A DNA stretch of 64,000 nt, from IMG/VR virus record IMGVR_UViG_3300048074_000120, positions 64,001-128,000 of that record, one strand, 5' to 3'. This document shows positions 22,171 through 62,603 of the stretch, in pieces. The notes below the pieces were generated by a model, which ran no database searches, was not told the DNA's origin, and saw only the letters and a program-made list of their open reading frames with translations. The translations under genes and the position numbers were made by a program. This DNA comes from a virus. Position 1 is the stretch's first letter; each line of letters begins with the position of its first letter.

Positions 22171-22631
22171 TCCACCTCACGCTTCCCTGGCTGCCACCTT
22201 CCGTCAACGACCTCTATAAGCCCGTGATCAAGGGCACTGGCTTCAAGAAGATAGCCATCCAGACACTCTCGGCAGCCGGAAGGAAGTTCAAAAAGGAGGC
22301 CATTGCCTACCTAGTCAAAAACTGCCAGCCCCAAATGCGTTGGTTCAAACCCAACGGGACCTACGTCATGTTCACCCTGTTCGGGGTACAAAATCTAGAG
22401 AACAAGGGCTGGCCAAAAACGGCCAAGGCTAGGTATAAGAAGGCCGACGTCACCAACCGAATGAAGGTCCTCGAAGACGTCATCGCTGAGGCCAGTGCCG
22501 TAGACGACTCCGCCTACCTACTGTCCATCTGCCAAAAACGGTCCAGCGATACGGCCGTCACTGACGTTTGGATCTGGAACCTAGACGAGGAGGGTTGCCC
22601 TTTCTATGCTGCCGCTAGCAGCCTTCGATAA
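22167..22631 (+). CDS. rusA: RusA-like Holliday junction resolvase
   Basis: LPWLPPSVNDLY, KADVTNRMKVLED, VDDS match RusA motifs. Confidence 0.8.
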   Translation: MIHLTLPWLPPSVNDLYKPVIKGTGFKKIAIQTLSAAGRKFKKEAIAYLVKNCQPQMRWFKPNGTYVMFTLFGVQNLENKGWPKTAKARYKKADVTNRMKVLEDVIAEASAVDDSAYLLSICQKRSSDTAVTDVWIWNLDEEGCPFYAAASSLR

Positions 22632-22995
22632 GTACAACTTCTCAGAGCTGTACCAACTGTGCATTCGGGCAGAACTCCCAGTGCTACCAACAACCCCCAG
22701 GGAAAAGCTCATTGCGTACCTGACCGGGGATGAAGAACCGCCCGAACTCGAGGAAGACGACCATCCCATTCATTCTTGGAGAAACGCCATCATTGGCTTT
22801 CTGCTCGATCAGTGGAAGAAGATGGCAACTCAAATCACGTGCCCAGCCAAAGCACTCAAAGACCCCATCAACCCCAATCCAAGGCCGTGCTTCGGCTGCG
22901 TCGATACGCAAGTGATCACGTGCCTTGTCCAAAACCACAAAGCTGAAGCACTCATCTCACCCTATCGTTTACTAAGGAGACCCGTAACAAAATGA
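22606..22995 (+). CDS. Hypothetical protein with N-terminal HeH/Rho_N-like motif and Cys-rich C-terminus
   Basis: DKYNFSELYQLCIRAEL...PREKLIAYL; CPAK...PCFGC...C. Confidence 0.6.
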   Translation: MLPLAAFDKYNFSELYQLCIRAELPVLPTTPREKLIAYLTGDEEPPELEEDDHPIHSWRNAIIGFLLDQWKKMATQITCPAKALKDPINPNPRPCFGCVDTQVITCLVQNHKAEALISPYRLLRRPVTK

Positions 22996-23663
22996 CCACA
23001 GCGAAACTGAGCTTGGAAACCGCCCCCACCACCCTCGAAGACATGATGAAGATCGGTAGGTTCAACCTCCGACTTCTCGCGCAGGAGTTTGGCCTGTTCA
23101 ACACCGAGGAATCAAAGGCAGCCTTCATGCAGCTATCAAACGAGGGTCAGGCAAAAGCCCTCCTCGATGCTGCTACAAAACTCCGCGGGGGCGGCAAAGG
23201 CAAAGCCACTGCTGCAACCGGGACCGGTGCCGCCCAGCGCACCCCCGCCACCGGAAAGGGTGCCGGCACCGGCAGAAAGCCAGCCACCAAAACGGAAGAA
23301 CCCCCAGAGGAGACGCCCGCGGACCCGGCCGCAGCCAGGGCTCCGGCGACCGCAGCAGCCGCTGGCGCAGCCAACACCGTAAAGCTCATGCAAGGCATTG
23401 CCGCTGCTTGCGAAGGCATCAAGGGCGCCGTCGAGACCACGGACGGCTCCATCGTGGCCGTACAGAGCACGCTCGAAGCCATCAATATGGCCCTGTGGTT
23501 CAACACCGCCCTGACCGTGCTTCAGATCGAACAAACCATCCAGATTGACCGGGCCGAAATCATCGAGATGGCCATGCAGGAAATCCCGGGCCTCAAGGAT
23601 GCCCTCAGCGCCGCCCAGCCCGCCAGTGGCGAAGAGGAGTACGCCGAAGAGGGAAACGCGTAA
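22992..23663 (+). CDS. Hypothetical protein; N-terminal domain paralogous to 61986..62603; ends at a candidate -1 frameshift site
   Basis: GRFNLRLLAQEFG..EE.K..FMQL.N.GQA shared with the 61986 ORF. A/T/G-rich linker and helical C-terminus. Confidence 0.75.
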   Translation: MTTAKLSLETAPTTLEDMMKIGRFNLRLLAQEFGLFNTEESKAAFMQLSNEGQAKALLDAATKLRGGGKGKATAATGTGAAQRTPATGKGAGTGRKPATKTEEPPEETPADPAAARAPATAAAAGAANTVKLMQGIAAACEGIKGAVETTDGSIVAVQSTLEAINMALWFNTALTVLQIEQTIQIDRAEIIEMAMQEIPGLKDALSAAQPASGEEEYAEEGNA

Positions 23664-23851
23664 AGGTCGAGACTTGGCCCAGCTGCATCCGTGCCAGGAT
23701 TCAAGACACGATTGAAATCGACGAAGGCTACCTACTGAGCCTCGACTACAATCAACTTCGAATCCTGGCCATGCAGCTCGGCGTGCTGGTCCAAGATGAC
23801 CCGAGTCTCGACCTATTGCGACAGAGAATTCGCCAGTGCCAACTGGTGTAA
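23651..23851 (+). CDS. Startless ORF in the -1 frame: candidate frameshift extension of 22992..23663 carrying an HeH-like domain
   Basis: Frame reads GKRVKVETWPSCIRARIQDTIEIDEGYLLSLDYNQLRILAMQLGVLVQDDPSLDLLRQRIRQCQLV*. No ATG/GTG/TTG before the conserved motif. Slippery G GGA AAC at 23651-23657. Confidence 0.55.
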   Translation, partial: GKRVKVETWPSCIRARIQDTIEIDEGYLLSLDYNQLRILAMQLGVLVQDDPSLDLLRQRIRQCQLV

Positions 23852-24088: not shown

Positions 24089-24129
24089 GTGGGAAGTGGG
24101 AACCAGCGGAGGCTGACTTCCCACTTTTT
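24089..24129 (+). terminator. Intrinsic terminator ending the replication operon
   Basis: GTGGGAAGT...ACTTCCCAC stem followed by TTTTT. Confidence 0.8.
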
Positions 24130-61920: not shown

Positions 61921-61985
61921 TCACGGCCTTATCTCGCAATCCAATTCGTTTTGCAGAGATAAGAGACGCGTAGGAGGAAAACACA

Positions 61986-62603
61986 GTGCACCACGCTTTA
62001 GACGATATACCGATCAACGCAACAACCAACGATTTACTCAAGAGGGGACGCTTCAACCTACGCCTACTGGCGGAAGAGCTTGGAGTGTTTGTTGATGAGG
62101 AAGCAAAAAGTTCATTCATGCAGTTAGACAACCAAGGGCAAGCTGAAGTTGTTCGCAATGCCTTACTGAAATCCAGGGGTTTGCCCCCTGTGGAACCCGT
62201 GGACATGCGACAGAAGGTAAGTAATGCCGTCCTGGCTAGGGTCACCAAAATGCGCGCCGATTCATCCGATACGTGGCACCTCTACAAAACTCAACAGAAA
62301 GTTGAATCTGTTAGAGGAGAGCTTGTCAGACAGTACGAGGCGCAACTCAACGCTCTTCGTATAGAAAACTATGGAGGCATTGAGCTTAGGGACAGGGCCC
62401 TCCTTCAGCTTCGCACAGAGTCAAACACGACTTGGGAAGAACTGAATCTTGAACGTGTGAGGCACAAAAAGACGAGCGTAGAGTTGGTACAAGCCAATGC
62501 ATTGCTGTCTGAGCTGCGCGCAAGAATCAGACAGCTGGAACTCCAGGTGCAGAAGCGCGAACGAGCTTCGAAAAGAAAGAAGAAGCCAGCTAGGCGCAAA
62601 TAA
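61986..62603 (+). CDS. Protein with N-terminal domain paralogous to 22992..23663, coiled coil and basic tail
   Basis: AGGAGG RBS and GTG start; GRFNLRLLAEELG..DEEAK..FMQLDNQGQA. Confidence 0.7.
   Translation: MHHALDDIPINATTNDLLKRGRFNLRLLAEELGVFVDEEAKSSFMQLDNQGQAEVVRNALLKSRGLPPVEPVDMRQKVSNAVLARVTKMRADSSDTWHLYKTQQKVESVRGELVRQYEAQLNALRIENYGGIELRDRALLQLRTESNTTWEELNLERVRHKKTSVELVQANALLSELRARIRQLELQVQKRERASKRKKKPARRK

Follow-up and report, generated by a model that had tools for sequence, protein, structure and literature searches.

The gene described here lies in a 64,000-nt stretch of DNA, the window, which covers bases 64001-128000 of a 188,971-bp single record from an uncultured phage (IMG/VR record IMGVR_UViG_3300048074_000120). 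Among its genes are one for a major head protein and one for a multi-subunit RNA polymerase in fused form, which is beta/beta-prime-like, 2143 aa long and lies at G000:C1 54062-60493 on the - strand (L067). No cultured relatives were found among the GenBank phages searched, and no matches were found in GTDB genomes. One distant relative (L063) sits in a record classed as a provirus. On the + strand of the window we identified an operon with, in order, genes for a DnaB-like helicase, primase, DNA polymerase A, an IHF-like protein, a RecA/UvsX-like protein, a Holliday junction resolvase, a Cas4-like nuclease, RusA, and a 129-aa cysteine-rich protein. These are followed by the 223-aa gene that carries the candidate frameshift and by a 64-aa zinc-ribbon-like gene. 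The frameshift gene is near the end of this replication/recombination operon, the setting that an earlier reading of the letters alone (the sequence-only reading) had assigned to it. The features of the locus are as follows.

22606..22995, + strand: upstream coupled gene, 129 aa, with conserved cysteines (ORF and homologs)
22992..23663, + strand: 0-frame gene, 223 aa, the short isoform, with HeH head, disordered linker, coiled coil and acidic tail
23028..23192, + strand: predicted N-terminal HeH (Rho-N/SAP/LEM-like) domain, residues 13-67 (structure model)
23352..23537, + strand: long amphipathic helix, residues 121-182, a predicted self-associating coiled coil (structure model)
23634..23639, + strand: SD-like GAGGAG, 11 nt upstream of the heptamer, which codes for Glu-Glu of the acidic tail
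23651..23657, + strand: slippery heptamer G_GGA_AAC, the proposed -1 shift site
23657..23851, + strand: -1 frame extension of 64 codons, a W-P-x-C motif and then a second predicted HeH domain (about 23717-23848)
23673..23698, + strand: weak 6-bp hairpin that can form between 23673-23678 and 23693-23698, with one G-U pair and a 14-nt loop
23892..24086, + strand: zinc-ribbon-like gene, 64 aa, with its own ATG and SD, last in the operon here (from sequence)
24108-24121: terminator-like site 3' of the zinc-ribbon-like gene

The heptamer G_GGA_AAC is in X_XXY_YYZ phase with the 223-aa ORF, and the TAA stop at 23661 lies 3 nt (one codon) beyond it. The open -1 frame spans 23549 to 23851, with 64 codons after the slippery site, and the trans-frame product is predicted to be 286 aa long. 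The 65-codon -1 stretch that starts at 23654 is without ATG, GTG or TTG ahead of codon 40, and the -1 codon that overlaps the 0-frame stop is GTA. The hairpin begins 15 nt past the heptamer. The statements that the sequence-only reading had made about the letters themselves (the heptamer, the GAGGAG 11 nt upstream, the hairpin, the 64 codons in the -1 frame and the lack of an early start) all hold.

We compared the window locus with 28 distinct relatives (29 loci altogether), which are independent assemblies from IMG/VR, JGI, ENA and Logan. Fifteen close loci came from similarity to the extension or the 0-frame protein, 4 distant loci from a profile search with the extension, and 9 distant loci from similarity to the upstream neighbour alone. 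The last set is unbiased as to the junction because it was found through the upstream neighbour only. A 524-bp low-coverage contig with A_GGA_AAA (L035) looks chimeric and was excluded from the loci, and P0010 and P0013 were treated as repeat artefacts. Homologs of the 0-frame protein are present in all 29 loci, and in each of them an in-phase slippery heptamer stands ahead of the extension, including all nine found through the upstream neighbour alone. The heptamer is G_GGA_AAC in 15 loci, G_GGA_AAA in 13, and A_AAA_AAA in one. Retention of the heptamer and of the open -1 frame among homologs was a check that the sequence-only reading had proposed, and throughout the set the heptamer is either kept or replaced by another slippery heptamer.

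The loci are deeply diverged. Identity between 0-frame proteins falls to 20% and that between extensions ranges from 17 to 97%, and the 0-frame tails range from acidic to basic. Ahead of the Gly stands a codon for Glu, Gln, Ala, Lys, Leu, Pro, Thr or Ser whose last base is nonetheless invariably G. The encoded residues thus vary (x-G-N or x-G-K, and Arg-Lys-Lys on A_AAA_AAA) while the X_XXY_YYZ pattern persists. In the ordinary genes of this genome, a set from which the target gene is excluded (an opposite-strand ORF stands in its place), x-Gly-Asn is coded in this way in 1 of 125 cases and x-Gly-Lys in 1 of 191 (2 of 316 in total). GGA accounts for 14% of Gly codons genome-wide and AAA for 24% of Lys codons. 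The remaining conserved Gly positions in the same proteins have mixed codons, and synonymous sites are near saturation in the 15 close loci (pS 0.66). The varied residues, the rare background coding and the mixed codons of the control Gly positions place the constraint on the nucleotide pattern and its phase. The per-locus codon probabilities multiply to 10^-45, a product that disregards relatedness and is not a P value; the tree of loci has about ten long independent branches.

These comparisons bear on whether the break between frames could stem from faulty assembly or from a recent indel, as in a pseudogene, in a single fused gene, or whether a C-terminal Gly-Asn/Lys could be kept for protein reasons next to an incidental -1 ORF. 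The head-gene C_CCU_UUA junction of the same phages, which is split in some relatives and single-frame in others, lends the indel version some plausibility. However, the identical break occurs in 28 independent assemblies, an in-frame fusion of the 0 and -1 frames was found in none of the 29 loci, nor in a (weak) search of longer proteins, and the constraint at the codon level goes beyond any protein need. Both versions are largely refuted by the comparative data, and we consider them extremely unlikely.

The -1 frame is under selection as coding sequence. Across the 15 close loci pN/pS is 0.35 in the -1 frame versus 0.91 and 1.61 in the other frames, and it is 0.47 for -1 codons 4-20, which lie ahead of any plausible internal start. 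The -1 frame is free of stops in 15 of 15 close loci, and its third positions are the most variable. Distant-locus extensions that are outside the profile match it (E 1e-13 to 7e-7 in four loci, and 0.006 in L057). The heptamer and the conserved Trp are separated by 7 to 11 codons, with no intervening stop. The full extension is present in 26 of the 29 loci. Among the distant loci it is cut at 20 codons in L061, diverges past the Trp motif in L057 and is diverged throughout in L065, so it is not universally required.

How ribosomes would enter the -1 frame is addressed by the variation around the stop. The overlapping -1 codon differs by locus (GTA, ATA, CTA, CTG, GTG or ATG) and there is therefore no conserved start. 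A canonical start is near the site in three loci (GTG in L036, ATG in L039 and L066), and all three retain the heptamer despite the usable start. In L059 the 0 frame runs on 159 nt beyond the site, so that reinitiation coupled to a stop is excluded there. The -1 frame of L018 opens only one codon ahead of the heptamer, excluding entry further upstream. A -1 shift at the heptamer would account for the lack of a fusion, the variable start, L059 and L018 together. The circumstances that the sequence-only reading had named as counting against a frameshift, an in-frame fusion or a separate gene with its own start among homologs, are not what the 29 loci show.

The extension might nevertheless be a small gene in its own right, whose translation would start by termination-reinitiation at the stop-overlapping codon (GTA here) with the purine-rich run as its ribosome-binding site. 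The spacing from stop to Trp is fairly constant among close relatives, the TGA stop is overlapped by GTG in L036 and by ATG in L066, and the ATG of L039 is one codon ahead of the Trp. In addition, other genes of the operon use ATGA overlaps, and gene callers annotate some extensions as free proteins. Against this, the stop-overlapping codon is a canonical start in only 2 of 29 loci, L059 is without a stop near the site, and the heptamer is still kept where a real start exists. Reinitiation would also leave unexplained the invariant GGA and AA[C/A] codons and the swap to A_AAA_AAA. We regard it as unlikely.

Slippage by the phage-encoded RNA polymerase rather than the ribosome could also yield both forms, and the fused multi-subunit enzyme and the run of seven A in one relative are consistent with it. 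Sites of transcriptional slippage typically consist of some nine A or T in a row. The motif here, G3A3N in strict codon phase, is instead the pattern of tandem tRNA slippage and includes no long homopolymer, and its codon phase is kept in 29 of 29 loci, making slippage of the polymerase very unlikely.

We therefore favour a programmed -1 frameshift, as the sequence-only reading had proposed, in which a minority of ribosomes would shift at the heptamer and produce a 286-aa form beside the 223-aa protein. We put the probability of this reading at roughly 0.88. The alignments directly show the site, its phase and conservation, coding selection in the -1 frame, and the lack of both a fusion and a conserved start; from these we infer that the slip occurs in vivo and, as no RNA stimulator is conserved, at a low rate.

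Two further patterns were noted close to the junction. At 23666-23671 of the window, 8-13 nt after the site, a Val codon that lies five codons into the -1 frame has C as its third base in 16 of 16 close relatives, and the following codon keeps a third-position G although its residue varies. This is a possible small constraint at the RNA level. At most of the 29 junctions the closest 0-frame stop is TAG or TAA, and at only four (L036, L057, L065 and L066) is it TGA, whereas TGA is the commonest stop genome-wide (66 of 139). Possible reasons for the scarcity of TGA are the overlapping -1 codon, a need to avoid GTG as a start, or pausing.

The sequence-only reading also invoked stimulation of the dnaX/IS3 type by the SD-like run and the 3' hairpin, and named conservation of the SD spacing as a check. 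This part is not supported, as neither element is conserved or enriched. The stimulatory SD window for -1 shifts is 9-14 nt upstream (PMC5009743), which includes the position of GAGGAG. We synonymously recoded the 12 codons upstream of the site and compared anti-SD pairing. In the window it is -8.6 observed versus -8.8 kcal/mol recoded, the means of the 29 loci are -5.5 and -5.6 kcal/mol, respectively, and the SD-like run is absent in several loci. As recoding gives equal pairing, we rejected the run as a selected stimulator; the acidic tail generates SD-like runs by itself. It may still act in the window locus, though as no conserved part of the site.

Similarly, RNA structure downstream is no more stable than chance in pseudoknot-free folding of 73 nt (z +0.58 versus shuffles and +0.33 versus recoding). 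The consensus fold of 14 close loci reaches only -1.05 kcal/mol and is without covariation. The 6-bp hairpin is 82% paired, is matched by 103 of 500 shuffles and has no covariation support. Given the z-scores, the covariation result and the 15-nt distance from the heptamer, as against the 5-9 nt or so at which stem-loops or pseudoknots of dnaX/IS3-type sites lie, neither the hairpin nor the consensus structure is supported as a stimulator. Several distant loci beat their recoded controls (z -2 to -4), a comparison that is confounded by G+C because the control uses the codon usage of this genome. In E. coli, A-site AAC and AAA codons shift less well than AAG (PMC5009743). Together with the lack of a conserved SD or 3' structure, this indicates that efficiency may be small, and the lack of any conserved RNA stimulator likewise points to a low shift rate.

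Other candidate shift sites were identified in the same genome, outside the window.

G000:C1 8957-10303, - strand: second -1 site (L040), G_GGA_AAU, one codon ahead of the stop
G000:C1 31739-32845 and 29684-31510, - strand: two adjacent genes near the major head gene (L041)

The G_GGA_AAU site is followed by 141 open -1 codons and by a strong stem (-38 to -46 kcal/mol), and it is kept in 6 of 6 genomes. Its retention with strong structure indicates that this clade selects such sites. The gene has a G/GT-like arrangement, yet no match to a tail chaperone family. The contrast with this structured site suggests that the site in the replication operon shifts at a lower rate. Each of the two genes near the major head gene has C_CCU_UUA at its end, and the -1 frame stays open there for 125 and 56 codons, respectively. 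The split form of the first gene is kept in two relatives; in three others the matching stretch is in an open frame of 528-599 aa, and C_CCU_UUA occurs upstream in two of the three.

The structure model of the 0-frame protein begins with a four-helix domain at the N-terminus. A disordered linker (68-124) separates this domain from a helix of 62 residues, which is followed by another helix and a disordered tail. The model of residues 13-67 is most similar to the Rho N-terminal domain (1a62; Z 6.5, rmsd 1.7 over 48 residues), followed by SAP and LEM entries, and in the Atlas it matches Rho_N with a TM of 0.61. The extension is modelled with a pLDDT of 83. Its top structural match is also the Rho N-terminal domain (Z 5.3, rmsd 1.9 over 43 residues), and SAP, LEM and endonuclease VII domains come next. 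In the Atlas, the extension falls with Rho_N and HeH clusters, the top one being labelled 'putative HeH/LEM domain' (0.86), which we treat as a lead only. Profile comparison of the N-terminal domain with the extension gives a probability of 64% (E 6e-5 over 31 columns). Folds and profile comparison agree with the claim of the sequence-only reading that the appended domain is HeH-like and echoes the N-terminus, and in the models a coiled coil is flanked at both ends of the long isoform by Rho-N/SAP/LEM (HeH) folds. With Z-scores under 8, these matches indicate likeness of fold only, not function.

The predicted helix-extension-helix fold would place the N-terminus and the extension with the HeH superfamily, which includes the Rho N-terminal, SAP and LEM domains and the C-terminal domain of T4 endonuclease VII. 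Unlike known members, neither part has a sequence match to Pfam Rho_N, SAP, LEM or HeH, and the extension bears an extra conserved W-P-x-C segment. Searches of Pfam, PHROGs, NCBIfam, PDB sequences, the PDB with Foldseek, and BFVD gave no name for either part of the protein. The net charge of both HeH domains is near neutral in most members, so any nucleic-acid binding is putative. Based on this charge and on the conserved hydrophobic motifs of the extension, we lean towards a protein partner. N-terminal HeH paralogs are encoded in the same genome at about 61980-62600 of the window (+) and at about G000:C1 151850-152050 (-) (tblastn E 2e-15 and 7e-8), and by inspection neither ends in a slippery heptamer.

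A three-copy model of residues 115-212 is a coiled coil with a score of 0.62, versus 0.01 for the best control. Contacts agree by at least 80% between runs, and pLDDT is at least 74. The mark for self-association was calibrated on two copies and is reached by 20 of 30 solved homo-pairs and by 1 of 23 single chains; coiled coils may pass this test through likeness to solved ones, and copy number is not fixed by the model.

The 129-aa cysteine-rich gene, for which 269 homologs were identified, precedes the frameshift gene in every locus whose DNA covers that side. In one distant locus (L065:3001-4044) a single uninterrupted ORF spans both the cysteine-rich gene and the HeH/coiled-coil gene, an in-frame fusion that is a single hint that the two proteins may work together. 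Any HeH likeness of the upstream neighbour is unproven, as profile comparison with the extension gives a probability of only 2%. On the downstream side, HNH homing endonuclease genes replace the zinc-ribbon gene after the extension in two close relatives (L009:3860-4324 and L033:3949-4422), and L009 has a further HNH homing endonuclease gene upstream of the neighbour gene.

The closest known parallels are lambda gpG/gpGT and g-t of halovirus HCTV-1, in which G_GGA_AAN (reported as G_GGA_AAC in HCTV-1) stands just ahead of the 0-frame stop, short and C-terminally extended products are made, and the extension probably adds a binding module (PMC5009743). The predicted phage site would work like lambda G/GT rather than dnaX, given that the SD-like run and hairpin are unsupported as stimulators. 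It differs from lambda G/GT in that the gene is in a helicase-primase-polymerase-RecA-RusA operon and the added domain is HeH, and the genome's own G_GGA_AAU site fits the G/GT pattern better. The gene does not lie between major tail and tape measure genes, the position of tail chaperones, and no tape-measure context was seen; its neighbours encode RecA-like, resolvase, Cas4-like nuclease, RusA and zinc-ribbon proteins. No match to a tail chaperone family is listed for it in Pfam, PHROG, NCBIfam or BFVD. The dnaX and IS3-family (IS911) sites share a heptamer-type -1 shift on bacterial ribosomes and, in part, a replication context. In contrast to those, the site here is not A_AAA_AAG. The E. 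coli dnaX shift shortens its product, whereas that in the phage gene would lengthen it.

Apart from tail chaperones, most known phage frameshift cases are capsid and tail extensions. The Ig-like extensions of T3, A2 and Listeria A118/A500 resemble the present case in placing a small accessory domain on a fraction of oligomer subunits, and differ from it in that the operon here is non-virion, HeH is not Ig-like, and no in-frame variants occur among the 29 loci. T7 gene 5.5-5.7 sits among T7 DNA-metabolism genes, and gp5.7 is also made as a free protein. This non-virion phage locus yields a fusion by -1 frameshift (bioRxiv 10.1101/299180). The extension here differs in having no conserved start, and the likeness is one of arrangement, with no homology expected. 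A2 cro is another precedent outside virion genes. Tail chaperone genes make up 2397 of the 2476 annotated phage frameshifts in the PRFect training set (PMC10885494), and non-virion phage frameshifts are known but rare among annotations. The sequence-only reading was thus fair in calling a frameshift in a replication operon unusual, with the qualification that such non-virion precedents exist. No literature on this gene family was found within the reach of the library searched.

As we envisage it, most ribosomes would stop at the TAA at 23661 and release the 223-aa protein, with its HeH head, flexible linker, coiled coil and acidic tail. A minority would move back by one base at G_GGA_AAC and read past the stop, extending the protein by 64 residues that are predicted to fold as a second HeH. 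Tentatively, and at somewhat less than even odds, we suggest that the two isoforms co-assemble via the coiled coil, following the logic of lambda gpG/gpGT. The shift would then set the share of subunits that carry the second HeH, an adaptor through which the oligomer could be held to nucleic acid or to a protein of replication or recombination. That the heptamer stays perfect across deep divergence while neither SD nor RNA structure is conserved raises the improbable idea that the site is switched in trans, with the Rho-N-like product itself or the coupled upstream protein binding the mRNA just downstream and tuning the shift.

Overall, a broad uncultured clade strongly conserves a candidate shift in a replication/recombination operon, and gene callers miss or mis-start the extension. 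The locus also provides a natural cassette, with variants, for asking how well bacterial ribosomes shift on G_GGA_AAC/AAA when the usual stimulators are lacking; the structured G_GGA_AAU site in the same genome serves as an internal comparison. If the switch in trans were true, the phage would have a -1 frameshift that a protein regulates on bacterial ribosomes and that determines how a replication or nucleoid scaffold is composed.
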